A DNA stretch of 15,576 nucleotides. Origin: a virus. Its lineage: Duplodnaviria > Heunggongvirae > Uroviricota > Caudoviricetes. The notes under the pieces were generated by a model. It saw only the letters and a list, made by a program, of their open reading frames with translations, was not told the DNA's origin and searched no databases. Numbering within the stretch: the stretch's first letter is position 1; every line of letters begins with the position of its first letter. Positions 1 to 15,576 of the stretch are shown here, piece by piece. The stretch is from IMG/VR virus record IMGVR_UViG_2802429234_000006. The stretch is one strand, 5' to 3'. The position numbers were made by a program, and so were the translations under genes.

Positions 1-1371
1 TTACCAATTAAAAATATAATCTTTTATTTTAAGATACATATCAACTTTCCCAGACCATTTTGATGCACTCTCTTTCATATTTTCAATAACATCATCAATC
101 AGTAAGTCTCTTCCTTTTACAATCAATTGATCATCATCAATACCCTCTGGTGCAAATTCATATATGTGCATGCTTAGATTAGACTTCTGAGTATGAGGGA
201 ATGAATCTTTTTCCACACACATACCAATAAACTCATTAATAGATAGTTCTTTCTGTTTACACATCATAAGTAATAATTCGAACTCATCAATTGTTATATA
301 GTAAATTCTTTTTAGATCAATGGGGATACTATGATATTTTTCAGATAACTCAGTTGATAGATCAGGGTTAATTAAATCCTGCACAACCATTGCATTTGAT
401 ATATGATGATCCCGATGCACCACAATTAACATTGAATCTTTCGAAGATGGTTTTCTCATCTCTATTTTATTTAAATTAAAAGCACATTCCTGACCTTGAT
501 AAATCCCTTTAATAAAACTCTTATTCAACCTTTCCTTTAGCAACTGAGCATTATTAGATGTTTTAACGAACTTTGCAGGCTCTATTGCCTTCGAGTCAAC
601 ATAAACTATTGAATCTCCTTCTGAAATAACAAAATCTACGGACTTGCAATTTTTTATTGCATTATCACTATAAATCTTCTTAACCTCCCTTTCAGTCTTA
701 AAGTTATAATTGTACTTATCAAGAAAGCGAGAAATATAAAGTTCCATCGTCTTACCAAATTTTTCTTTATAAGATTCCTTATAGACCTGCTTGAACAATT
801 CTGGAACTAGGTTGACAAACCCTGACTTCATGATTCTTTTGCATAATATCACTACACCATCGCCATCTAAAAACATTGGTTTACTGAGGAATGGTGTATC
901 TTCATAATACTCAGCGGTAATGTTTTTATCCAATTTATATGGGGCAATAAAATCTCTTACACCATCAATTTTTAAGCATGTTAATTCCAAAAATCTTTTC
1001 ACTTGTTCCGGACCAAATATCGGAACCAAGTTTATTATCAAGTGTTTAAATGGAATAACCTCTGATTCTACATCAGGATTAATACATGAAATAGCGGTAA
1101 AATAACATGCCATTTTGTAATAGCTTTCCAAATGTAAACCAGTACATTCTAAAAACTTATCTTTATAATATAATTCATCATTCAAGCAATACCAAATATA
1201 CTGTCTTGTTAATGAATTGGCATTAAATTTATCAGTTGATTGATAAAGCAACTGATTTATCACCATTCGTCTAAGGCTTAGCATAACTTTATCATCAACG
1301 ATTAAATTAGATGCTTCTAGTTGCAAGTTATAGATTAAGTTGATAATATCAATAAAATCATTTTTACTCAT
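1..1371 (-). CDS. Hypothetical protein, AT-rich cargo gene (456 aa from the ATG at 1371; the track ORF extends to 1434 only through non-ATG codons). Possible PD-(D/E)xK-like nuclease signature.
   Basis: Long uninterrupted ORF in a markedly AT-rich block. The ATG at 1369-1371 overlaps the TGA stop of the upstream small ORF (ATGA), suggesting translational coupling. No strong SD precedes any candidate ATG. The motif DFVISEGD-SIVYVDSK is encoded at about 589..636. No Walker A motif seen. Confidence 0.6.
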   Translation of the reverse strand: MSKNDFIDIINLIYNLQLEASNLIVDDKVMLSLRRMVINQLLYQSTDKFNANSLTRQYIWYCLNDELYYKDKFLECTGLHLESYYKMACYFTAISCINPDVESEVIPFKHLIINLVPIFGPEQVKRFLELTCLKIDGVRDFIAPYKLDKNITAEYYEDTPFLSKPMFLDGDGVVILCKRIMKSGFVNLVPELFKQVYKESYKEKFGKTMELYISRFLDKYNYNFKTEREVKKIYSDNAIKNCKSVDFVISEGDSIVYVDSKAIEPAKFVKTSNNAQLLKERLNKSFIKGIYQGQECAFNLNKIEMRKPSSKDSMLIVVHRDHHISNAMVVQDLINPDLSTELSEKYHSIPIDLKRIYYITIDEFELLLMMCKQKELSINEFIGMCVEKDSFPHTQKSNLSMHIYEFAPEGIDDDQLIVKGRDLLIDDVIENMKESASKWSGKVDMYLKIKDYIFNW

Positions 1372-1598
1372 TTCTTTTGCAGGCTTTTTTCCTTCATGCA
1401 AAACTTCCATTTCATTGCCAGATAGCAACACCAAGGGAAATTGGAAACAATACCCACCTCGACATCCCTTACTTTTTGGAAGTGTTCATAAAAATTTCTC
1501 AAAAAAGAAACATCACTAAAATATGACAATCTTTTCTTAATCGCATCAACTTTTATAGAATATGACATTGGTGTCATTGTTTTTATTGCCACGCTCAT
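1368..1598 (-). CDS. Small hypothetical protein (76 aa), first gene of a putative two-gene operon
   Basis: ATG at 1598 preceded by AAAAGG about 5 nt upstream. Its stop overlaps the ATG of the large downstream ORF. AT-rich promoter-like DNA lies upstream (1599-1680). Confidence 0.4.
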   Translation of the reverse strand: MSVAIKTMTPMSYSIKVDAIKKRLSYFSDVSFLRNFYEHFQKVRDVEVGIVSNFPWCCYLAMKWKFCMKEKSLQKK

Positions 1599-2511: not shown

Positions 2512-3039
2512 TCATTGATGGTCTGATTTTTCCCATTCAGCCAGGGCGTTTAGCCCGGCTTCACTCCATGATTCCAGTTCATCGGGATAATCACCTGCAA
2601 CATAGCAGAGTTCGCAACGCAGCATACGAATTGCCAGCCTGGCATTACCCCGCAAATTGTATTGTTCAAAGTAATGCTGCCCGTCGCAATCCTCAAGGCA
2701 GATAGCACCATCATCAAGAAATTGCACTTCCCAGCCTAATTCCCCGGCTGCATCCAGCACACGCTGCTGTATGCCCTCGTCCGTTGCTGGCGCAGGAATT
2801 TTACCGTCTCTGGCCTTAACTGCTTTCCAGAACTCGCCCCACGTCATTTCCAGCGTTCTTTCTGGCCACATTTCAGAAACTGCGTCTTTTCCCTGTGCTG
2901 GTGGGCTGTTCCGCTGCTCTGTCGCTTCCACATCGATTTTTTTACCGGACATGATCACTTCGCCTTTCTCGATCCAGTCGTAAACTGTCTGGCGGCTTAC
3001 GCCTTTGTATTTGGCGTATTCGGCTTTACTCATCAACAT
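2512..3039 (-). CDS. Helix-turn-helix DNA-binding protein (175 aa); N-terminus resembles the winged-HTH of excisionase / AlpA / lambda Nu1 (TerS N-terminal) type proteins
   Basis: ATG at 3039 with GAGGTG 6 nt upstream (the track start at 3048 is a GTG). N-terminal MSKAEYAKYKGVSRQTVYDWIEKGEV fits the pattern of Nu1-like NKKQLADIFGASIRTIQNWQEQG. Acidic C-terminal half. Family assignment is from recollection, not a search. Confidence 0.65.
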   Translation of the reverse strand: MLMSKAEYAKYKGVSRQTVYDWIEKGEVIMSGKKIDVEATEQRNSPPAQGKDAVSEMWPERTLEMTWGEFWKAVKARDGKIPAPATDEGIQQRVLDAAGELGWEVQFLDDGAICLEDCDGQHYFEQYNLRGNARLAIRMLRCELCYVAGDYPDELESWSEAGLNALAEWEKSDHQ

Positions 3040-3138
3040 GTAGCTCACCTCATGCGTATACGATAAAAAATAATTTCATGCGGAAAGGGAATGCGTTGTG
3101 GGTATGGAGGAAAGGGGCAATAACCGCCCCTTACTGAT

Positions 3139-5420: not shown

Positions 5421-5804
5421 TCAGGAACCCAGATGCAATTGAATATTCATCTGCTCAGCAACGTAGTAGATTTCTTCAGAAAGCATCAACAAAAAACCAA
5501 GAGAATCCCATCCTCTGTTACTGACTACAATTGTTCTTTTTTGGTAATTCCTGAATGCCTTACCATTGGGCTGATGTAATCCCATCCCGGCATGTGCCCG
5601 GCTGATGGTTTCGCGCATCTCCCCGAAATTATCCTGCCTTGCCGGTAGGCGTGCTGCCTTGCGTATACATTCCGCGCGACGTTTTGCCGCCTGTTCCCGT
5701 GCTTTGTCATCATTCGCCAGCATGATGACCTCAGCCCATCGCTCCGCCGCTCTCCGGTACAGGCCACGCGCTTCCAGTGCTTCCGCTTTACTGTCGCGTA
5801 TCAT
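5421..5804 (-). CDS. PerC-family-like transcriptional regulator (127 aa)
   Basis: ATG at 5804 with AAGGAGG 10 nt upstream and an ATGA overlap with the preceding ORF. N-terminal KAEALEARGLYRRAAERWAEV resembles the conserved N-terminal motif of PerC/Pch-type activators as I recall it; not confirmed by search. Confidence 0.5.
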   Translation of the reverse strand: MIRDSKAEALEARGLYRRAAERWAEVIMLANDDKAREQAAKRRAECIRKAARLPARQDNFGEMRETISRAHAGMGLHQPNGKAFRNYQKRTIVVSNRGWDSLGFLLMLSEEIYYVAEQMNIQLHLGS

Positions 5805-6049
5805 GCGCTTTTTCCCTCCTTCATGGCCTTACGCTGGCGCTTGTGCTTCTCATTCAGCGCCATCAGCCGCGTTTCTGCGTCCTGTTGTTCCTGTGGTGTC
5901 ACCTCGCCGCATGGCTGGCCTTTCAGGTCGTAACGCACTCCACCAGCAACCAGAGCGCGGTAATAGCGCGGAGACTGCGCATAAGATGCCAGCGTCGCAC
6001 GTAATGCCCTTAGCCCGAATGCCAGCCCCCTGACGGCGATATCCTGCAT
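5801..6049 (-). CDS. Hypothetical small protein (about 82 aa from the ATG at 6049; the track extends to a GTG at 6160)
   Basis: Stop overlaps the PerC-like start (ATGA). GC-rich region with overlapping alternative frames, so the start is uncertain. Confidence 0.35.
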   Translation of the reverse strand: MQDIAVRGLAFGLRALRATLASYAQSPRYYRALVAGGVRYDLKGQPCGEVTPQEQQDAETRLMALNEKHKRQRKAMKEGKSA

Positions 6050-6117
6050 CAGGTCGTCGAATATCCCCCACCTTAAGCGGCTTCGGTGCTTCCCGGCTGA
6101 ATAATTCAGGCCACAAC

Positions 6118-6342
6118 TCAGTGGCGGTTTTTGCGCTGCCGTTTGGTCATATGCCGCCACGGTGTCGCCCCTGTGGGCTTCTGCTGCACTTTCTGGTTAC
6201 CGGGCATCACTTTATGCGCCGATGTGGTTTTATCCTGCTCCTGTGCCGACTGCGTCGTTTTCTGCGTCGTGCCGAAAATGCCTTTTGGCTTTCTGTTAAT
6301 GGTCAGCTTTGTCATGCTCTTCCCCATCATTGTTGCCGTCAT
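6118..6342 (-). CDS. Hypothetical small basic protein (74 aa)
   Basis: Hydrophilic, Lys/Arg/Thr/Gln-rich ORF just downstream of the putative origin. No clear SD at the first ATG; an internal ATG has GGGAAGAG upstream. Competing plus-strand frames are Cys-rich and look non-coding. Confidence 0.25.
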   Translation of the reverse strand: MTATMMGKSMTKLTINRKPKGIFGTTQKTTQSAQEQDKTTSAHKVMPGNQKVQQKPTGATPWRHMTKRQRKNRH

Positions 6343-6496: not shown

Positions 6497-6769
6497 CGGG
6501 ATATCGGGATACAAACAAAAAACAACTTATTTTTCATTATGTTATGTGGTTTTTCGTATCCCGCCATATCCCGGTAAGTTTTTTTTTGCTTATGCATCAA
6601 TAACATATTTCGGGATACGTTCCGGGATACAGTGATTTCGTTTATTTTTAAACCATTCGTAAACCAAAATACTGGGATACGGCGGGATATGGCGGGATAC
6701 GATAGCAACACATAAGCAATTGATATTTATGTAATATATTTTTCATATCCCGATATCCCGCATATCCCG
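6497..6769. repeat. Putative replication origin: 12 copies of the 8-mer (C/T)GGGATA(C/T) in direct and inverted blocks, interleaved with AT-rich spacers
   Basis: Copies at 6497, 6505, 6611, 6623, 6673, 6683 and 6693 (forward) and 6556, 6566, 6745, 6753 and 6762 (inverted). Spacers contain long A/T runs. Lies 30-300 bp downstream of the replication protein gene stop (6802). Confidence 0.7.
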
Positions 6770-6801
6770 CGATTTTTGACCCTCTGCGAGCGTAGGCGGT
6801 T

Positions 6802-8934
6802 TTATTCGTCTTCAGCCAGGTCAATCAGCACGATAAATCGCTGCTGTGTTCCGTTAATCTTCACCGTTTTCGATGTCCAGCGACCGGGTTCTGCACAAAC
6901 CAGCACTCCGGCTTCCTCCAGCGCCTGGCACCCAAAGTTTCTGGATATGCCGCATAAAATTTCTCCATCAAACACTGACGGAATAATGTGATATTCGGGT
7001 TTTCCATCTTCCCGCTTACCGCTGACAAGATACCCTGCAAGGTTATTTATACGGGATGCATAGTGGTTATCCATATCTCCATTGCTTTTCCCGTAGGTAT
7101 AAGGCTGAAAACGGCTCAGGGCATGGCGCTGAATAAAATCACGGGCGCGGCTGATGACCTGGTATTTTTCCCGGTTTTCCAGCCCGAAATCCTGTAACCA
7201 GTCATCAAAAGCCCGTTGCGTTGCTGCCCGACATTCTTTTGCTGTCCAGCCAGTAATTGCGGTGGCAAGTTCTCCGGCCGCATCCAGCATGGCAAAGCGT
7301 GAAGCCACACGTCTGACCTGTGACGATGCATTTTCAGGCAGATTTCCCAGCCAGGTATTTTCTTTATCGGAAGTGGTGTTAATAGCCAGTTCCTTATGAG
7401 CGGATAACCAGCGCACCCACTCACGCCCCGCAGCTCCACAATAATTTGATGAAAGTCGCTTTATTGCTCTGGCATGTTGATCACCATCGTCATACCCGTT
7501 AAAAACCGTTGTATCGGTAAAGGGAACGCTTAGCAGCCGCACCAGTTGCCCGGCTTTTGGGGTGATCCCCCCTTTTAACAGGAAGGTCTCAAAATCTTCT
7601 TCCCCTGTGCTTAGTGCCGCTATTTTCCAGCGCATTACTGCACGATTGCCGCCATCTTTTCGTCCCTGAATTCTCCCCACACCGTTAAACAGGCTGTAGG
7701 CGGATTGCGCGATGTCATTAATCCTTCCTCCCTGACCAATTTCATCAATGGGGATAAAGCCATCATTACGTGCGGCAGCTTCCACCGTCAGTCCGTGCCG
7801 GGTGGCATCCCACGAAAGTTTGAGCATTTCAGGATCGCCATAAAGACTGGTGGCAGCTTCCACTGTCGTGGTTTTCCCTGCTGACGACTGCGCGAAAAGG
7901 TGGATACCAAAACAACTTCCGCCCACAAGAGAATTAAGGGGTGCTGCCAGTCCGACCAGTACCCCAAGCATCATTGAGTGATTACCTCGCATCAGGGAGG
8001 CGACATTATTCCTCCATTCCTGTACCGTCCCCCTGACGATATAGCCTTTGATGGCTGCAGATCCGCCACAGAATGCCACTGGACGATCCGGTACACCAAT
8101 CACCTCACCATCTGGCATAACATAGGCTCCACAATGCCATCCGGCTGTTGATGTGACCTCCCACACAGTACGATCTCCCTGACGTTGCAGGTATTCCGCC
8201 AGTTTATTCAGTAAATGGGCGCTGGTGGTGATTGCAACACCCCGTCCACGTAACCTCGCCCATCCTGCTGGCATACCGATTTCATTGCGCGGCATCGCTT
8301 CGTAAATAATTTTCTGTGTTCCTTCCGGGATCATTTCAATTATCAGATACGCTTCCCGACCATCATTACCAATACCCGCTGTGCGCATCCTGTCACTCAA
8401 CCAGGTTTCCTTATGATTCAGCTCCTCTGCTCTGGTATTGGGTATTGGCTCGACATACCAGAGCGCACCATCTTTTTCGGTGATATGCGGTTTCATGGGA
8501 TCTGTTCTTCCGGGCAATCCACCCGCTCTCCTGACTTCCTCCGTCATGGTTTCCCCGCGCTCTGCCTGTTCGCGGATCCGTTGCAGGTAGTCGCGCCAGT
8601 TCTCAGGCTCCCGGTCGGGGATACCTTTGTATAATTTCGCCTCCTGTACGCCAGCCAGCGCCAGTTTTTCGGCGACAGCGTTAATCAGGATTGGCTCAAT
8701 CTCCCCCGCGATATAAACACGCGCAAAGCGGCGCTCATCGTCGACAATGCGGATATTCGCAAGCTCTGCAAGTTGCTTTGGCCCCAGGTAAACAGGCGGC
8801 ACGCTATCGCCATGTTTTCGTCCTTCGCTTTCAATCCAGTGTTGAGCATGGGCGTAAGCGTCCGTCCCGGCAAAAATGATTACCTCAGTGAATTTATCCT
8901 TCGGCTGATATTTTAAATTCGGTGCGTTTTTCAC
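6802..8934 (-). CDS. Replication protein, primase-helicase-like (710 aa): P-loop NTPase core with a possible Toprim-like N-terminus
   Basis: Walker A-like AQSSAGKTT and Walker B-like FIPIDEIG read from the translation. GTG start at 8934 with GGGAGG 6-7 nt upstream, overlapping the stop of the preceding ORF (GTGA). An iteron array lies immediately downstream. Resemblance to DUF927 / phage-plasmid primase families is from recollection. Confidence 0.8.
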   Translation of the reverse strand: MKNAPNLKYQPKDKFTEVIIFAGTDAYAHAQHWIESEGRKHGDSVPPVYLGPKQLAELANIRIVDDERRFARVYIAGEIEPILINAVAEKLALAGVQEAKLYKGIPDREPENWRDYLQRIREQAERGETMTEEVRRAGGLPGRTDPMKPHITEKDGALWYVEPIPNTRAEELNHKETWLSDRMRTAGIGNDGREAYLIIEMIPEGTQKIIYEAMPRNEIGMPAGWARLRGRGVAITTSAHLLNKLAEYLQRQGDRTVWEVTSTAGWHCGAYVMPDGEVIGVPDRPVAFCGGSAAIKGYIVRGTVQEWRNNVASLMRGNHSMMLGVLVGLAAPLNSLVGGSCFGIHLFAQSSAGKTTTVEAATSLYGDPEMLKLSWDATRHGLTVEAAARNDGFIPIDEIGQGGRINDIAQSAYSLFNGVGRIQGRKDGGNRAVMRWKIAALSTGEEDFETFLLKGGITPKAGQLVRLLSVPFTDTTVFNGYDDGDQHARAIKRLSSNYCGAAGREWVRWLSAHKELAINTTSDKENTWLGNLPENASSQVRRVASRFAMLDAAGELATAITGWTAKECRAATQRAFDDWLQDFGLENREKYQVISRARDFIQRHALSRFQPYTYGKSNGDMDNHYASRINNLAGYLVSGKREDGKPEYHIIPSVFDGEILCGISRNFGCQALEEAGVLVCAEPGRWTSKTVKINGTQQRFIVLIDLAEDE

Positions 8935-9221
8935 TTCTTACCTCCCGCAACCAACATTGCCCGGATTTTTTTAATATTCGTGGCTGCACGTCTCGCCACC
9001 GCCTGTTGTTTGTTTTCCACCAGAATAAAATCACGCTCAAACTGACGGCGCGGCATTACGCAGTCATATTCGTAAGCCTCACGGCGGTAGGTGATATTGC
9101 CTGGCGTAACGTGACGAATAACCACTCGTCCACCACGTCTGGTGTCGCGGTAAATATCTCCGTGTCTGATTTCAGGCCGAGAGAGACCGCTGGCAGTAAA
9201 GCCAGAATTTTTCTTTTTCAT
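8931..9221 (-). CDS. Hypothetical basic protein (96 aa), translationally coupled to the replication protein
   Basis: ATG at 9221 with AGGA about 10 nt upstream; stop overlaps the replication gene start by 4 nt. Confidence 0.5.
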   Translation of the reverse strand: MKKKNSGFTASGLSRPEIRHGDIYRDTRRGGRVVIRHVTPGNITYRREAYEYDCVMPRRQFERDFILVENKQQAVARRAATNIKKIRAMLVAGGKK

Positions 9222-9225
9222 GGTT

Positions 9226-9426
9226 TTATTTTCCTGTCAGCAGTTCCGGTTTTATTCCTGCACGAATACAGAGTTCAGAAAAGCCTTCTACCGTACTTAC
9301 AATTTCATTATTTCGCAGCCGGCATTGTGATTTCACGTTCCCTTTATCCAGGTAAACCAGTACGCGTCCGGTGAAATCCTCTGGCACATTCAGGGTAATT
9401 GTCATTGTTGCTGGCTTATTACCCAT
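9226..9426 (-). CDS. Small protein (66 aa) carrying one copy of a DFTGxxLVxxxxGxV domain
   Basis: ATG at 9426 with AGGGGGTG upstream; overlaps the stop of the preceding ORF by 8 nt. Shares the motif with both halves of the 121-aa neighbour. Confidence 0.5.
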   Translation of the reverse strand: MGNKPATMTITLNVPEDFTGRVLVYLDKGNVKSQCRLRNNEIVSTVEGFSELCIRAGIKPELLTGK

Positions 9427-9784
9427 GATTCACCCCCTGAATGACCTGATAACCGCAACTGGTCAGCAATTCGATAAATTCCGGCAGTGTGCCGAAACAG
9501 CAATCATCACGCAGACATTCGCGGGATACCTCGACGCCGTTTTCGTAGTGACTCACCATGCGTCCGGTAAAATGCAGATCATCATCGTGATGGCTCGTTA
9601 ACGGCTTAATCAGTCGCGCACGTTCTGCCAGTTCCAGCAATGCTTCAACGCTTCCGGCAATTGCACCATCCGGCAGGTTGTAATTACGCACTATGCGCCC
9701 GTTCTCCACATGGACCAGTAGCTGCCCGGTAAATTTCTCGTCAAACTGAATGCTGTTAAGGTCAGCAATTGACAGGTTATGCAT
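9419..9784 (-). CDS. Hypothetical protein (121 aa from the ATG at 9784) containing two tandem copies of the same DFTG-motif domain
   Basis: Internal duplication FTGQLLVHVENGRIV / FTGRMVSHYENGVEV. The ATG overlaps the upstream stop within ATGCATAA (8-nt overlap). The track start at 9814 is a TTG. Confidence 0.5.
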   Translation of the reverse strand: MHNLSIADLNSIQFDEKFTGQLLVHVENGRIVRNYNLPDGAIAGSVEALLELAERARLIKPLTSHHDDDLHFTGRMVSHYENGVEVSRECLRDDCCFGTLPEFIELLTSCGYQVIQGVNHG

Positions 9785-9980
9785 GGCGCATCCCCTGACG
9801 AATACGGGTGGCAAATACCATCACGCAGCCATCAGGAGATTGCTGGCGTGCTTCCTGTTCGCTGGTAGCCTCGATGTGAATTACGCGCTGTTGTGCTGTG
9901 CTCAGGGCGATAAAACGCCAGATGTATTTATTCAGGTTGTGCGAGTCCCGCCCTTGCGGGTGTGTGGTATGATTTCTCAT
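9777..9980 (-). CDS. Small hypothetical protein (67 aa), first gene of the operon leading to the replication gene; possibly Icd-like
   Basis: ATG at 9980 with GAGG 6 nt upstream. It is the C-terminal part of a 286-aa track ORF whose upstream portion runs through a divergent promoter region and the opposite-strand small gene, so only this segment is taken as coding. The Icd-like label is a weak recollection. Confidence 0.45.
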   Translation of the reverse strand: MRNHTTHPQGRDSHNLNKYIWRFIALSTAQQRVIHIEATSEQEARQQSPDGCVMVFATRIRQGMRHA

Positions 9981-10077
9981 AGCTACCTCGATACTGTTGC
10001 TATCGTTGGTGGTTAGAAGCCCGGTTAGTGTTCGCGCACTGCCGGGTTTCGTCGTTTCTGCACCTTGCATCAACAAG

Positions 10078-10129
10078 GTGTTTAACACCAATTTAAACCT
10101 AGGTGTTAAACACGTCAAGTGTTGAACAC
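10078..10129. promoter_or_regulatory. Three operator-like palindromes GTGTT-N-AACAC in a divergent promoter region
   Basis: GTGTTTAACAC (10078-10088), GTGTTAAACAC (10103-10113) and GTGTTGAACAC (10119-10129). A possible sigma70 promoter for the plus-strand gene (TTGAAC at 10122-10127, 17-bp spacer, CATACT at 10145-10150) overlaps the third site. Confidence 0.5.
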
Positions 10130-10179
10130 TTGTTTTTTTTCCTGCATACTGCATTTGTTTTTTGTGAGGGGGACACAAC

Positions 10180-10359
10180 ATGGCGACAAAAGCAGTAAAC
10201 GCAAAATCACAAACAGTTGCGGCAAGGGTTCCGCATGAAGTTATGAACAATGTTGAGGCAGTAAAAATGCCTGGTGAAAGTACAGGGCAGTTTGTAACAG
10301 CAGCATTAAAGCGAGAAGTTGAGTACCGCCAGCGCCGCAAGGCCAAAGAACAGGAGTAG
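10180..10359 (+). CDS. Small ribbon-helix-helix-like DNA-binding protein (59 aa); the only plus-strand gene of the element in this window
   Basis: ATG at 10180 with GAGGGGG 8-14 nt upstream; hand translation MATKAVNAKSQTVAARVPHEVMNNVEAVKMPGESTGQFVTAALKREVEYRQRRKAKEQE to TAG at 10357-10359. The RVPxEV...S...FV..AL pattern is typical of Arc/CopG-type RHH proteins. Not in the ORF track (under 60 aa). Confidence 0.5.
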   Translation: MATKAVNAKSQTVAARVPHEVMNNVEAVKMPGESTGQFVTAALKREVEYRQRRKAKEQE

Positions 10360-10583
10360 TTGATCAACACCGGGCGCCCAGAAAAAATCGTATCAGTCGC
10401 GCCACCAGCAAAATTTTTTGCTTTCCGGACGATGTGGCCAACGACATTTTGCAGCAAAATATTCTGCATTTCTGGCGTGCTGTAGTAACGGTGATCAGCG
10501 CCTTCACTCTGTGCGACCACAACGCTATAATCTGCCTCGTAGACAGTAAGCAATATGGTGCTACAGGTAATTCGTTCACAAAG

Positions 10584-10614
10584 GCGCTCCGGCAACGGGG
10601 CGCTTTCTCTTTTT
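10584..10614 (+). terminator. Intrinsic terminator: 8-bp stem with GCAA tetraloop followed by TTTCTCTTTTT
   Basis: GCGCTCCG (10584-10591), loop GCAA, CGGGGCGC (10596-10603, one G-U pair), then a T-rich run. Sits between the convergent RHH gene (+) and the antirepressor gene (-). Confidence 0.5.
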
Positions 10615-10629
10615 GTAACGGTCAGAGCG

Positions 10630-11478
10630 TTACACATGGCTGTTTTCCTCCATGCGACGGGCTAACCAACGCTGCGAAAGGCGAATTAATTCAGCTTTCC
10701 GCTGGTGGTAGTCCTGGCCTAACTCAATCAGCGTGATATTGCTCTGCTCAAGGTAAGAAAGGTGCTCAAGCTGCAACGTGCTCATGTGGTCGCGTGGTTC
10801 GCCTGTGATGCCGTTCGCCAGTGCCCACTGTTTTGCAGTCATGCCACCCAGCACGATACGCGCCAGCATATTGGCTTCCGTGGTGTAATGGTGCTGTAGA
10901 GTGTTTTTACCCAGTTCAGCCCGGTACGCCTCCAGCGCGGCACACATTGGCTTAAAGTAGCTGGCAACTGTGATACGGGCTTTCAGTTCCCGGCGTAACG
11001 CTGCGGAACGTACAGGCGCAACCTTGTGTAGCTCTTCCTCGCATTTGATGAAGTACTGACGAACGGCGCGCCCCTGTTCGGTGCGTTCGACCATCGCCAG
11101 TTCTTTCGCCATGTTCGTGGAGATCAAATAGTCTTCACTGCGGCGATCACCGCCGCGCTTTGTTGTCCAATCAGAATCAAACTGTTCAATATTTACACTT
11201 TGGTTCCCCCGTTTCGGGGAATCAAAGTACAAATTTTCTACAACTTCAAAATCCACGCCATTTTTAAATCCGTACTCATCAATACGTCCTTTAATCCAGG
11301 TAGTGAAATCACGGCCTACCCCGAGCGCCTTATGCAACGCTCTGGCGCTAACAATATTGGTTTCACGCCCGCCAATAACGCCGGAAATAACCGGGATAAT
11401 TTCACCAAAATTTTGCAGATTCTGGTTTTCAGGTCGAATGAAGCCCTGCCCCTGTACGGGCGTTTTTCGCAGTTTCAT
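10630..11478 (-). CDS. Phage antirepressor-like protein (282 aa; AntA/Rha/KilA-type regulatory domains)
   Basis: ATG at 11478 with GGAG 7 nt upstream. Segments ARALHKALGVGRDFTTWIKGRI and ISTNMAKELAMVERTEQGRAVRQYFIKCEEEL resemble conserved blocks of phage antirepressor / Rha-family proteins as I recall them. Confidence 0.65.
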   Translation of the reverse strand: MKLRKTPVQGQGFIRPENQNLQNFGEIIPVISGVIGGRETNIVSARALHKALGVGRDFTTWIKGRIDEYGFKNGVDFEVVENLYFDSPKRGNQSVNIEQFDSDWTTKRGGDRRSEDYLISTNMAKELAMVERTEQGRAVRQYFIKCEEELHKVAPVRSAALRRELKARITVASYFKPMCAALEAYRAELGKNTLQHHYTTEANMLARIVLGGMTAKQWALANGITGEPRDHMSTLQLEHLSYLEQSNITLIELGQDYHQRKAELIRLSQRWLARRMEENSHV

Positions 11479-11555: not shown

Positions 11556-11753
11556 TCAGGTAGCTGTTCCGCGTGATTCCGCAATACGCTGATTAATCCA
11601 CTCGTCAATTTCACTCTCAACGAAAGCAATCGCTCGCGAGCCAATTTTTACAGGTTTAGGAAAACGCCCTTGGGCAATGAGTTTATAGATCCATGCCCTG
11701 CCATAGCCTGTACGGCGCATGGTTTCTGGCATACGAATTAAAGATTGTGACAT
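11556..11753 (-). CDS. alpA: AlpA-family transcriptional regulator / excisionase-like HTH protein (65 aa)
   Basis: ATG at 11753 with GGGAG upstream (the track start at 11822 is a GTG and runs through the operators). Sequence MSQSLIRMPETMRRTGYGRAWIYKLIAQGRFPKPVKIGSRAIAFVESEIDEWI is characteristic of AlpA/Xis-type proteins. Confidence 0.8.
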   Translation of the reverse strand: MSQSLIRMPETMRRTGYGRAWIYKLIAQGRFPKPVKIGSRAIAFVESEIDEWINQRIAESRGTAT

Positions 11754-11760
11754 GATAATC

Positions 11761-11793
11761 GTCTCCCGTTGTTTATTGATGCCTACGGGAGAC
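11761..11793 (-). promoter_or_regulatory. Leader hairpin (8-bp inverted repeat GTCTCCCG / CGGGAGAC with a 17-nt loop) that includes the alpA Shine-Dalgarno sequence
   Basis: Inverted repeat at 11761-11768 and 11786-11793. On the minus-strand mRNA the downstream arm contains GGGAG, the SD of alpA. Confidence 0.35.
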
Positions 11794-11820
11794 ATTGAAG
11801 CAGGTAAGACATTGGATATC

Positions 11821-11855
11821 ACCGCAATTGCGGTGAATGATACCGCAATTGCGGT
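11821..11855. promoter_or_regulatory. Tandem pair of perfect 14-bp palindromes ACCGCAATTGCGGT (operator-like), centres 21 bp apart
   Basis: Identical copies at 11821-11834 and 11842-11855, each perfectly self-complementary, in the interval between the 251-aa gene stop and the alpA start. Confidence 0.5.
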
Positions 11856-12623: not shown

Positions 12624-12751
12624 TCTGTGCTACCTCGCACCCTCTGTAAAAGTGGCTGTGCCAGCCCGCAGAGGTGTACGGGTTTTCAGGAGCGACCCTA
12701 GACACAGCCTTTTCTTAATCGCTCAAAGTCTACTACTGTATACTCAACCAG

Positions 12752-13966
12752 TCACCCGCATTTTCCGAACTCACCATGCACCACATTTCCGCCATGCTCG
12801 AGCGAATCCATATAGTCGGCATACCACTGGAGCATCTCCCGGCGACCATCCAGATATTGCGCATGGTTGTATGTGCCACGAATTGAGTTTTTATCGACGT
12901 GTGCAAGCTGTGTCTCTATCCACGCGGTGTTATAGCCCTGCTCATGCAAAATGGTGCTCATGGTGTGCCGGAATCCATGACCAGTAACCTTTCCGTTATA
13001 GCCGATGCGTTTAAATACTTGGTTTATGCTAGCCTCGCTCATTGTTTTCCTTGGATCATTACGGCCGGGAAACATAAGCGGATAATTGCCAGTTAATTCT
13101 TTAATCTGCCCAATAAGAGAAAGAGCCTGCTTAGACAAAGGCACCACATGAGGGCGACGCATTTTCATCCGTGAAGCAGGTATCTCCCAGATAGCCTTGT
13201 TGAGATCGATTTCATCCCATAATGCACCGCGCAGTTCGCCAGTCCGCAAACCGGTGATAATCAGTAGACGAGCCGCCATAACAACCAATGCACTTCCTGA
13301 GTAACTGGACAATGCCTTGAAAAAATCAGGTAATTCTTTGGCTGTGAGGAAAGGATAATGATTAGATTCATGACCTTGCATCGCGCTGGTGAGATCCGGT
13401 GCAGGGTTATACTCAGCACGTCCAGTGACAATTGCATAGCGGAAAACTTCCCCGCATCGCTGCCTCACTTTTTTGGCTTTTTCGGTAGCACCGCGCCCCT
13501 CGATACGCCGCAGCACATTCAGCAGTTCAAGTGGTTTGATTTCGGCGATTGGTTTTTTGCCAATGTAAGGGAACACATCTTTGTTGAAGGCTTCGAGGAT
13601 GTCTGAAGCATAACCAGCAGACCATTTTTTTAATTTGCTGCTGTGCCACTCAATGGCAATATCTTTGAAGGTGTTGTTTAACTGCGTTTCCCGGGCAATC
13701 TTTTCCTCTCGTTTCGCTTCCATCGGATCGATACCCCCAGCGATACTCCTTTTAGCTTCTTCACGTTTTGCACGAGCATCAGCCAAGGTAACTTCAGGAT
13801 ACACACCTAGTGCTAACAGCTTCTCTTTACCAGCTACACGATACTTGAAGCGCCAATATTTTCCTCCACTAGGTTTTACCAAGAGATACAGACCACCACC
13901 ATCAGCCAGCTTGTAAGCCTTCTCTTTTGGCTTGGCAGTGTCTATTTGACGGGCATTGAGTTTCAC
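12752..13966 (-). CDS. int: Tyrosine site-specific integrase, P4 / CP4-57 IntA family (404 aa)
   Basis: N-terminal pattern AKPKEKAYKLADGGGLYLLVKPSGGKYWRFKY and C-terminal catalytic region HGFRHT...RGTYNHAQY typical of P4-type integrases. GTG start at 13966 with GGAGG 9 nt upstream. Lies next to and co-oriented with a tRNA gene. Confidence 0.9.
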   Translation of the reverse strand: MKLNARQIDTAKPKEKAYKLADGGGLYLLVKPSGGKYWRFKYRVAGKEKLLALGVYPEVTLADARAKREEAKRSIAGGIDPMEAKREEKIARETQLNNTFKDIAIEWHSSKLKKWSAGYASDILEAFNKDVFPYIGKKPIAEIKPLELLNVLRRIEGRGATEKAKKVRQRCGEVFRYAIVTGRAEYNPAPDLTSAMQGHESNHYPFLTAKELPDFFKALSSYSGSALVVMAARLLIITGLRTGELRGALWDEIDLNKAIWEIPASRMKMRRPHVVPLSKQALSLIGQIKELTGNYPLMFPGRNDPRKTMSEASINQVFKRIGYNGKVTGHGFRHTMSTILHEQGYNTAWIETQLAHVDKNSIRGTYNHAQYLDGRREMLQWYADYMDSLEHGGNVVHGEFGKCG

Positions 13967-14041: not shown

Positions 14042-14132
14042 TTAAGTAGACGTCAAAAGACTAAAAGGGGCGCTAACATGCGGATTATAAGAGGTTTTTA
14101 AATACTTGAGTAGACTTGGGGAGACGTTAGAA

Positions 14133-14208
14133 TGGTGCCGATAATAGGAGTCGAACCTACGACCTTCGCATTACGAATGCGCTGCTCTACCAACTGAGCT
14201 ATATCGGC
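14133..14208 (-). tRNA. thrW: tRNA-Thr (anticodon CGU), thrW-type; integration target of the element
   Basis: Minus-strand sequence GCCGATATAGCTCAGTTGGTAGAGCAGCGCATTCGTAATGCGAAGGTCGTAGGTTCGACTCCTATTATCGGCACCA folds as a canonical cloverleaf: 7-bp acceptor stem, D-arm GCTC/GAGC, anticodon loop TTCGTAA, T-loop TTCGACT, encoded CCA. Confidence 0.92.
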
Positions 14209-14322
14209 CCTGAAAGGACATGTTCACGAACGTGAATCACGGTGGACAAGGTTAAAACTAACCGGGCGATGCGTCAATGGCCTTGTGAATCAAACGGCTA
14301 CTTTTGCATCACCCGGTTTTGT

Positions 14323-15576
14323 TTACGCACGAATGGTGTAATCACCAATGCCGATCCACTTGTAAGTGGTCAGTGCTTCCAGCCCCATCGGGCCGCGCGC
14401 GTGGAGTTTTTGTGTGCTTACCGCCACTTCCGCGCCAAGACCAAACTGGCCGCCGTCGGTAAAACGTGTAGAGGCGTTGACGTAAACAGCAGAAGAATCC
14501 ACTTCGTTAACAAAACGCTGGGCATTGCGCATATCACGTGTCAGGATCGCATCGGAGTGCTGGGTGCCGTGTTCACGAATATGAGCGATGGCATCGTCAA
14601 GATCGCTGACGATTTTGACGTTCAAATCTAATGACAGAAACTCATCGTCATACTCTTCGGCTTTAACAGCCACCACCTTCGCAGAGCCTGCCTGTAACTG
14701 CGCCAGCGCAGCTACATCTGCGTGTAACGTCACGCCGCTTTCCGCCATTTGCTTGCTTAATGCGGGCAGGAAGCTATCAGCGATGTTTTTATTTACCAGC
14801 AACGTTTCTACCGTATTACATGTGCTCGGACGCTGAGTTTTCGCGTTGATAATTACTTTCAGGGCTTCAGCTATCTCTGCACTTTCATCAACATAAATAT
14901 GGCAGACGCCAATACCGCCGGTGATCACCGGGATCGTTGACTGCTCGCGGCACAGCTTATGCAAACCAGCGCCACCGCGCGGGATCAGCATGTCGATGTA
15001 TTTATCCATACGCAGCATTTCACTCACCAATGCGCGATCCGGATTATCAATCGCCTGCACTGCGCCTGCCGGTAAACCGCAGGATTGCAGGGCGTCCTGA
15101 ATCACCGCCACCGTTGCAGCGTTGGTGCGGCAGGTTTCTTTACCACCGCGCAGGATCACCGCGTTACCGGTTTTCAGGCACAGGGAAGCGACATCAACCG
15201 TCACGTTCGGGCGCGCTTCATAAATCACCCCAATCACGCCAAGTGGGACGCGACGACGCTCCAGACGCAGACCGCTGTCCAGCACACCACCATCAATCAC
15301 CTGCCCCACCGGATCGGCGAGATTACATACCTGGCGCACATCGTCGGCAATGCCTTTCAGTCGCGCGGGCGTCAGTGCCAGACGGTCAAGCATCGCTTCG
15401 CTAAGGCCATTGGCACGCGCGTCAGCAACATCCAGGGCGTTAGCGTTGAGGATATTTTCGCTTTGTGCTTCCAGTTCATCGGCGATCTTTTCCAGCACGC
15501 GATTTTTTTCGCGGCTGGAGAGTTGCGCTAATTTATACGAGGCTTGCTTCGCGGCAATGCCCATTTGTTCCAGCAT
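14323..15576 (-). CDS. proA: Gamma-glutamyl phosphate reductase (glutamate-5-semialdehyde dehydrogenase), complete 417 aa
   Basis: Full-length translation [21 protein letters not shown]...[15 protein letters not shown] matches enterobacterial ProA as I recall it. The start codon is at the window's last three bases; thrW lies 115 bp downstream, as in the E. coli chromosome. Confidence 0.95.

Follow-up and report, generated by a model that had tools for sequence, protein, structure and literature searches.

Five genes with coupling-type junctions in the replication module of a predicted PICI-type phage satellite, and the elements that may control them

The five genes and their junctions

We analysed a 15,576-nt stretch of DNA (the window, position 1 being its first nucleotide) from the viral record IMGVR_UViG_2802429234_000006 (Caudoviricetes), whose gene content identifies it as a satellite of the phage-inducible chromosomal island (PICI) type. 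Five minus-strand genes, named here g1 to g5 in the order of transcription, run from position 9980 to position 6802 and end in the gene of a replication protein (Rep, g5). An earlier reading made from the sequence alone had described these genes as linked by stop/start overlaps or a 4-nt gap, and every detail of this description was confirmed when the strand was read against the table of open reading frames (ORFs). The g1/g2 and g2/g3 junctions are the octamers ATGCATAA (9784-9777, minus strand) and ATGGGTAA (9426-9419, minus strand), the g3 stop and the g4 start are separated by the gap AACC at 9225-9222 (TAA-aacc-ATG), and g4 and g5 share GTGA (8934-8931). As the same reading had stated, each start is preceded by a Shine-Dalgarno (SD)-like purine run, namely GAGG (g1), AGGGGA (g2), AGGGGG (g3), AGGA (g4) and GGAGG (g5), the weakest being that of g4, which lies 10 nt from its start. 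A simple scan of the minus strand gave no strong internal promoter or terminator signal. All five ORFs are under purifying selection, with ratios of nonsynonymous to synonymous substitution rates (dN/dS) between 0.05 and 0.48 with respect to orthologues (0.37-0.48 for g2).

The junctions were then compared among islands of Serratia, Salmonella, a second E. coli lineage and Raoultella, whose Rep proteins are 81%, 76%, 50% and 48% identical, respectively, to the Rep of the window. In these four islands the upstream genes are still linked by 8-nt ATGnnnTAA-type overlaps, a small gap is found ahead of DUF4222 (the family of g4) where a DUF4222 gene is called, and the stop/start overlap into Rep measures 4 nt in three of the four and 31 nt, as called, in Raoultella. 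The 4-nt DUF4222-Rep overlap is present in nearly all annotated islands that carry DUF4222, unrelated Rep families included, and the same junction pattern occurs in PICIs with unrelated Rep types. That the pattern is kept across diverged islands shows that the arrangement is maintained, and is a stronger argument than any chance statistic. These observations show that the five genes are real and conserved and that they are joined by coupling-type junctions (Table 1). The upstream small genes differ between islands in number and identity; the string is therefore modular and not a fixed five-subunit machine.

The junctions might also reflect compaction only. In that case the genes would be co-transcribed, the overlaps would be a by-product of packing, the small genes would have early or interference functions of an unrelated kind, and Rep would not be governed by coupling or by an antisense RNA. 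Overlaps do join other genes of the island (ProQ-PerC and 3408/3411), the genes upstream of DUF4222 are variable, with g3 being dispensable in the island L032 (the second E. coli lineage), and the family of g1 is one of cell-division inhibitors and not of replication factors. However, the types of junction are kept while the proteins diverge to 25-50% identity, the overlap between DUF4222 and Rep is near-universal across Rep families, and the antisense element described below is always placed at the first start codon. We consider compaction alone an unlikely explanation.

Table 1. Features of the window and their positions
Feature	Positions	Strand	Remarks
g1	9777..9980	-	ATG 9980, TAA 9777; 67 aa; Icd-like protein; first cistron
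g2	9419..9784	-	ATG 9784, TAA 9419; 121 aa; two copies of g3 domain
g3	9226..9426	-	ATG 9426, TAA 9226; 66 aa; single-domain paralogue of g2
g4	8931..9221	-	ATG 9221, TGA 8931; 96 aa; DUF4222 protein
g5 (Rep)	6802..8934	-	GTG 8934, TAA 6802; 710 aa; predicted initiator-helicase
Degenerate Toprim-like N-terminal domain of g5 (predicted), aa 1-130	8545..8934	-	AlphaFold model, motif comparison
Walker A AQSSAGKTT, aa 348-356	7867..7893	-	aligned to Cch QSSTGKST; GKT at 353-355
Walker B FIPIDEIG, aa 393-400	7735..7758	-	aligned to Cch PIVFDELS; DE at 397-398
Replication origin (predicted)	6497..6770		11 exact CGGGATA/TATCCCG iterons, both orientations, around AT-rich stretches
SymR-like cis-antisense small RNA (predicted)	9979..10062	+	complementary to g1 SD and 5' untranslated region
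Antisense extended -10 TGgTATGAT (predicted)	9965..9973	+	g1 codons 3-6; 7 nt upstream of RNA 5' end
Operon promoter (predicted)	10090..10118	-	TTGACG, 17 nt, TAAATT; scan, 9/12 matches
Three palindromes GTGTTnAACAC (candidate operators)	10078..10129		10078-10088, 10103-10113, 10119-10129
YlcI/YnfO family gene	10180..10359	+	59 aa; divergent; NCBIfam NF041551, 59.7 bits vs cutoff 30
Intrinsic terminator, ylcI transcript	10581..10606	+	11-bp stem, 7 GC pairs, T-run; weak in antA direction
AlpA	11556-11822		Phage_AlpA 2.5e-19 (Pfam); co-oriented with int and replication genes
int-alpA RNA motif	12640-12708	-	Rfam RF02996, 49.8 bits vs gathering score 35.8
Tyrosine integrase	12752-13966		Pfam; 167 nt from tRNA-Thr

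The replication protein, its origin and the small proteins

The core of g5 (aa 227-434) matches DUF927 (Pfam PF06048, 1.1e-40; 140.5 bits as compared to a gathering score of 22.6), and further matches were obtained with NCBIfam Cch1, with the PDB entries 5dgk (SCCmec Cch) and 8tch (a SaPI protein), and with phrog_1139. The Walker A and Walker B motifs that had been read in the large protein are both present. By homology, g5 is thus shown to be a DUF927 AAA-type helicase of the class of SCCmec Cch and SaPIbov1 Rep. Cch, itself a DUF927 protein, is a relative of SaPIbov1 Rep, and the C-terminal domain of SaPI Rep binds iterons located downstream of the rep gene (PMC7581432). The protein of the window has in common with these the ATPase core, with its Walker motifs, and the iterons placed directly after the gene; the similarity, however, is only at E~1e-6 and confined to the core, and the degenerate Toprim described below and the enterobacterial C-terminus have no counterpart in Cch or SaPI Rep.

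The predicted origin lies directly 3' of g5 in a region with a GC content of 0.39. Islands with a Rep at least 76% identical to g5 contain the same iterons in the same arrangement, whereas those with a Rep about 50% identical or unrelated have other repeats in the same place (TGAGACAA, GTGGTTCA, GGTAGACA and CTGTTCAC). Such co-variation between iterons and Rep allele provides good evidence for the array as the cognate origin.

The N-terminal part of g5 has a different history. Over residues 143-710, g5 shares 77% identity with the C-terminal two-thirds of proteins of 915-950 aa from PICIs of Xenorhabdus, Klebsiella and Proteus, which start with Zn_Ribbon_Prim and Toprim_3 domains (the zinc ribbon was matched in P0029 and P0054), whereas about 380 N-terminal residues of these long relatives are replaced in g5 by 142 residues. 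The long relatives share with g5 the antisense RNA at the start codon and differ in having a Toprim_3 domain with the catalytic E and DxD; the primase-proficient islands of the Xenorhabdus type have no g1-g4 upstream. The 142 residues of g5 gave no match in Pfam, where Toprim is absent even at E<1, nor any match to Zn_Ribbon_Prim, and they contain no Cys/His cluster.

In the AlphaFold model, based on 21 family members, aa 1-130 are confidently predicted as a beta-alpha-beta-alpha-beta-alpha-beta fold that resembles the Toprim of DnaG, T7 gp4 and Twinkle. The primase-bearing relatives have an invariant E247-G248 after strand 1 and D294-N-D296 after strand 3, where the 21 members of the g5 family have the equally invariant A22-G23 and A76-G77. 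According to hhalign, the end of the g5 N-domain (PDxxPENWRDYL) is in register with the Toprim end KADWNDY of the long relatives, but only this C-terminal edge (aa 107-160, probability 85%) was aligned with the Zn-Toprim proteins, so that the match of the E and DxD positions rests on the order of the strands and the motif pattern and not on a scored alignment. The model and the motif comparison together are taken to show a Toprim-like fold without the catalytic acidic residues and without a zinc ribbon. With these residues replaced, such a degenerate Toprim would be unable to bind the catalytic metals, and g5 would therefore be an initiator-helicase and not a primase-helicase; priming is presumably left to host DnaG. 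The sequence-only reading, which had proposed a primase-helicase-like protein with a possibly Toprim-like N-terminus, holds as far as the helicase and the fold are concerned, and fails for the primase activity; of the domains it had named for a Pfam search, DUF927 was found and Toprim was not.

The possibility that g5 is an active DnaG-type primase-helicase, and the operon a complete primosome, draws on the likeness of the fold to the Toprim domains of DnaG, T7 gp4 and Twinkle, on the label 'DNA primase' of the PHROG family and on the sister proteins, which are true Zn-ribbon-Toprim-DUF927 fusions. We regard it as very improbable, considering that the catalytic Glu and DxD are replaced by invariant Ala and Ala-Gly, that the zinc ribbon and a Pfam Toprim match are missing, and that the first 232 of the 895 positions of the primase PHROG profile are unmatched.

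When the window is compared with L032, nucleotide identity is 92-95% from 10056 to 8550 and below 67% beyond, which reveals a sharp mosaic breakpoint at about 8550, that is, around codon 128 of g5. The high-identity side comprises the antisense RNA, g1, g2, g4 and the Toprim-like domain; the other side comprises the helicase, the C-terminus and the origin. From this collapse of identity past codon ~128 it follows that the dead Toprim was inherited with the upstream genes and not with the helicase-origin unit. A whole Rep lineage may have kept the dead Toprim, which would be passed on together with DUF4222 and the small genes as a single recombination module; this would suggest a docking platform and not an enzyme.

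As for the small proteins, g1 belongs to the Icd-like family (NCBIfam NF033153, 66.4 bits with respect to a cutoff of 25; phrog_6196, 2.4e-42), and its activity is predicted. Icd of phage P1 is a cell-division inhibitor. The g2 protein matches phrog_340 in two stretches and g3 matches the same family once (5.8e-18); both contain the motif FTG...G...L...EL (alignment A4), and by sequence g2 consists of the g3 domain duplicated in tandem. No match to g2 was obtained in Pfam, PDB or PADLOC, and no informative relative of g2 or g3 was found. Some related islands, such as L032, lack g3. PDB sequence searches with g1, g2 and YlcI returned chance-level matches only, and PADLOC returned nothing for g2, g4 and g5. 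The model of g4 shows a five-stranded Tudor/SH3/KOW-like barrel followed by a C-terminal helix, and is closest to the RNA polymerase-binding Tudor domain of UvrD/PcrA. Its N-terminal tail (residues 1-17, 9171-9221, minus strand; MKKKNSGFTASGLSRPE) is predicted to be disordered and is nearly invariant among DUF4222 proteins that are otherwise 45-60% identical; it may represent a short linear binding motif. Taken together, these features suggest adaptors or early-function proteins, and do not demonstrate a role in replication.

Predicted control elements at the 5' end of the operon

Opposite the start of g1, the plus strand contains a predicted SymR-like antisense RNA. The segment 9981-10053 (+), which begins at the g1 ATG, matches the Rfam symR family below its gathering score (32.7 bits, E 0.0064). 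With respect to shuffled sequences, the plus strand folds with a minimum free energy of -37.2 and a z-score of -5.1, as compared to a z-score of -1.2 for the minus strand; the G-U pairs of the element occur on the plus strand only, and its second hairpin is followed by a U-rich tract. The predicted antisense promoter lies within the first ~10 codons of g1, and alignment A1 shows its TATG(A/C)T without variation. With a covariance model made from 11 copies, the element was found in 20 loci besides the window. In these, 97% of cells are paired and 10 of the 24 pairs show compensatory double changes, far above the slid-register controls. In every locus the RNA has its 5' end next to, or over, the start codon of the ORF that leads the replication operon, and in several Xenorhabdus islands this ORF is the 924-aa primase-helicase itself. 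Since the antisense is always found at the first start codon, the element is tied to the start of the replication operon, whichever gene leads it. Sequence related to the antisense element occurs in 1386 of 5426 E. coli genomes.

In E. coli K-12, SymR represses the synthesis of SymE in cis (PMC1891008). As in that system, a predicted two-hairpin RNA of ~77-80 nt is antisense to the 5' end of a gene, from its start codon; the reciprocal model matches are weak, the target in the PICIs is an Icd-like or Rep cistron and not SymE, and the upstream control would involve YlcI/YnfO operators and not, as for SymE (PMC1891008), LexA. The model built from the PICI elements alone also matches K-12 symR (L041 3836-3912, plus strand; 23.6 bits, E 0.0017), at its annotated place and on its annotated strand. 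This likeness suggests a common ancestry of the symER leader/antisense cassette and its PICI counterpart.

Further upstream, about 100 nt from g1, lies the predicted operon promoter, which is of the sigma-70 type; its -35 (TTGACG/TTGACA) is kept in all eight alleles compared, whereas the surrounding sequence is not. Of the three palindromes, one covers the predicted start site, one falls within the promoter spacer and one precedes the -35. The divergent YlcI/YnfO gene is also found in L001, L002, L028, L029, L032 and L035-L040. Among eight islands the palindromes change with the YlcI/YnfO allele, and are identical only where the YlcI/YnfO proteins are 98-100% identical; the most variable segment of the protein (N-terminal residues 11-15) tracks the identity of the operators. 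This stretch is expected to be the DNA-reading strand of a ribbon-helix-helix protein, and on such correlative evidence YlcI/YnfO is a candidate repressor of the operon.

The mechanical list of ORFs contained a 286-aa ORF (9777-10637, minus strand). It was rejected as an artefact that extends g1 upstream, because it traverses the antisense RNA, the operators and ylcI on the opposite strand. Comparable over-long 'Icd-like' calls were made by PGAP in islands L002 and L037.

It is also conceivable that the five genes are the distal part of a long AlpA-dependent transcript (alpA-antA-...-rep) and that the site at 10118-10090 is incidental or minor. AlpA activates genes of EcCICFT073, and Gram-negative PICIs (GN-PICIs) are described as unidirectional with AlpA as the activator (PMC6092414); in P. 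aeruginosa AlpA is an antiterminator (PMC7969949), and by analogy AlpA may act in the same way here. In L032-L034 the gene calls chain antA directly into the next ORF, and the hairpin at 10581-10606 would be a poor terminator in the antA direction. On the other side, the -35 and the operator geometry are kept in the eight alleles while their surroundings are not, and a divergent gene with its own terminator lies between antA and g1. The long transcript as the sole source of operon expression is doubtful in our view, although the two readings, a long transcript and an operon promoter, are not mutually exclusive.

A different type of RNA control would be an immunity region of the P4/P1 type, in which a processed C4/CI-like RNA controls icd and the genes downstream. 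In the sister island L002 (E. coli 357900), isrK (75 bits), C4 (82 bits) and a c4-a1b1 motif, near or above the Rfam thresholds, lie at 11243-11444 (-) between the SymR-like element and the Icd-like ORF, just upstream of the latter, which points to two stacked layers of RNA control in that island. The Icd-like nature of g1 would also fit, as in P1 immI. The ~336-nt block with these elements is absent from the window, which gave no C4, isrK or a1b1 match in Rfam even at E<=1; nor were P4 genes of the psu, sid or delta type found. With no match of the C4, isrK or CI type in Rfam, a P4/P1-type immunity region is rejected for this copy of the island, and we give it scarcely any credence.

We therefore favour, at a probability of roughly 60%, the reading of the five genes as the replication operon of a PICI in which YlcI/YnfO, the antisense RNA and translational coupling control the supply of Rep. 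In the resident state, the YlcI/YnfO repressor would shut the operon promoter and thereby act on transcription, while the antisense RNA would pair with the leader and block the ribosome-binding site of the first cistron, thereby acting on the translation of g1. When g1 is not translated, translation of g2-g5 would be reduced, and transcription would probably also decrease through Rho-dependent polarity. Because each later start overlaps or abuts the preceding stop, silence of g1 would reach Rep, and control at the 5' end would thus set the supply of Rep. Upon induction by a helper phage, AlpA-driven transcription from upstream, loss of repression, or both, would override this control and the island would replicate. 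Rep would act as a self-loading initiator-helicase whose C-terminal part reads the iterons, with host DnaG making the primers. Among the small proteins, which would have early functions, g1 would inhibit division in the manner of Icd, and g4 would serve as a Tudor-like adaptor linked to Rep.

This scheme resembles known plasmid and phage circuits. In CopA-tap-repA of R1 and in c4-icd-ant of P1, an antisense RNA blocks a short first cistron and downstream expression follows through translational coupling; in P1 immI the first cistron is Icd itself. By analogy, the relay here would run through four cistrons, and the RNA would be cis-antisense, unlike the co-transcribed C4. The more specific proposal of a plasmid-like copy control, with a SymR-like countertranscript, a coupled relay to Rep and YlcI/YnfO as the 'missing' master repressor of PICIs, is put forward tentatively, at somewhat less than even odds.

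Several points weigh against the favoured reading. Compact mobile elements often contain overlapping genes. The antisense RNA and both promoters, its own and that of the operon, are predicted; the operon promoter has a weak -10 (TAAATT), and shuffled sequences yield promoter-like sites at least as often as this region. The score of the symR match is about half of the gathering threshold of 61 (RF01809), that of the reverse match is only 23.6 bits, and the covariation counts rest on a model-fitted alignment. Foldseek found no significant match of the g5 N-domain in the PDB, which is weak counter-evidence to its Toprim-like nature. No characterised member of YlcI/YnfO was found in the literature searched. 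Finally, GN-PICIs are described as transcribed unidirectionally and with no master repressor known (PMC6092414), and a divergent repressor departs from this unidirectional, repressor-less published picture.

The island, its relatives and its significance

The gene content and the position of the window identify it as a Gram-negative phage satellite of the PICI type, inserted at tRNA-Thr next to proA. The tRNA-Thr(CGT) gene (14133-14208) adjoins proA, and from there the order is integrase, int-alpA RNA, AlpA, an AntA-type antirepressor, the operon, ProQ/FinO and PerC; a TerS-like helix-turn-helix (HTH) protein, a GapS1 antiphage gene and several unknowns make up the rest. GN-PICIs are defined by int, alpA, pri-rep and an iteron origin directly 3' of rep (PMC6092414). 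Such an origin has two sets of iterons on either side of AT-rich DNA, and islands of this class measure about 10-15 kb and are free of lysis and tail genes. The window has the integrase beside the attachment (att) site, a co-oriented alpA, and a pri-rep gene of predicted function followed by the iteron origin. The int-alpA RNA motif sits between the integrase and a 251-aa gene, and occurs also in E. coli 55989 (L001 14735-14802).

A search with the 3' end of the tRNA gave no second att copy in the window, and no phage structural or lysis genes were matched there (Pfam, PHROGs, NCBIfam); the far end of the island lies outside the window. The orthologous island of E. coli 55989 spans ~15 kb, and the annotations of E. 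coli 55989 and O104:H4 show the same island, gene for gene, at thrW. A megablast of the operon against a phage collection gave no match, so it is not a known phage segment, and operon-like DNA was found in 1385 of 5426 complete E. coli genomes. A P4-like satellite was also considered. According to the SatelliteFinder definition, the core genes of such satellites are psu, delta, sid, epsilon and alpha; no ORF of the window matched them in Pfam, PHROGs or NCBIfam, and this candidate was rejected.

EcCICFT073 and four further E. coli PICIs have the same order of divergent YlcI/YnfO, Icd-like gene, small genes, DUF4222, Rep and origin, and CFT073 also carries the antisense element. EcCICFT073 and other GN-PICIs (PMC6092414; EcCIMP1, PMC11773190) likewise have int beside att, alpA and overlapping small genes, followed by SSB/ProQ/PerC and cargo. 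The differences concern Rep, which in the window is DUF927 with a dead Toprim and in EcCICFT073 is a 'DNA primase family protein', the iterons, which are CGGGATA here and GGTAGACA there, and the cargo, which here is GapS1; the window contains no capsid genes.

Some neighbouring genes deserve mention. In E. coli 55989 the ProQ/FinO orthologue is intact (176 aa), whereas the gene of the window (5804-6315, minus strand) is split over three frames; the split marks a pseudogene or stems from sequencing errors. A 477-aa ORF at 1-1434 (-), with a GC content of 0.30, belongs to the GapS1 family of antiphage proteins (NCBIfam NF047931, 384 bits with respect to a cutoff of 320), a family not covered by PADLOC 2023; it is a defence gene carried as cargo at the island's distal end. 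A 178-aa protein encoded at 2512-3048 (-) has an N-terminal HTH like the N-termini of small terminases and excisionases (phrog_57, 1.4e-06), and is a candidate for the packaging-redirection factor of the island. As to the host, the proA/tRNA-Thr flank (14100-15576) is at most 95% identical to any of the 5426 complete E. coli genomes, and AlpA and AntA are 98-99% identical to their counterparts in Escherichia ruysiae (L028); the probable host is an Escherichia other than E. coli.

The operon is the standard replication module of a known and very common class of satellites, and its layout is ordinary. In the literature searched, we found no description of a dead Toprim inherited with the upstream module, of a SymR-like countertranscript or of a PICI repressor-operator pair, although this absence is not proof of novelty. 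PICIs are abundant, with similar operon DNA in a quarter of complete E. coli genomes, and they move virulence and anti-phage genes, GapS1 being the one carried by this island. How GN-PICIs are silenced and switched on is partly understood, with AlpA as the sole known regulator and no repressor identified. The results also indicate that PICI Rep proteins labelled 'primase' through the lumping of families do not always merit the label. For the biology of these islands, the analysis offers three leads: an antisense RNA predicted to lie on the start codon of the first cistron, a candidate repressor together with operators that match it, and a Rep that would be dead as a primase and would borrow its priming.

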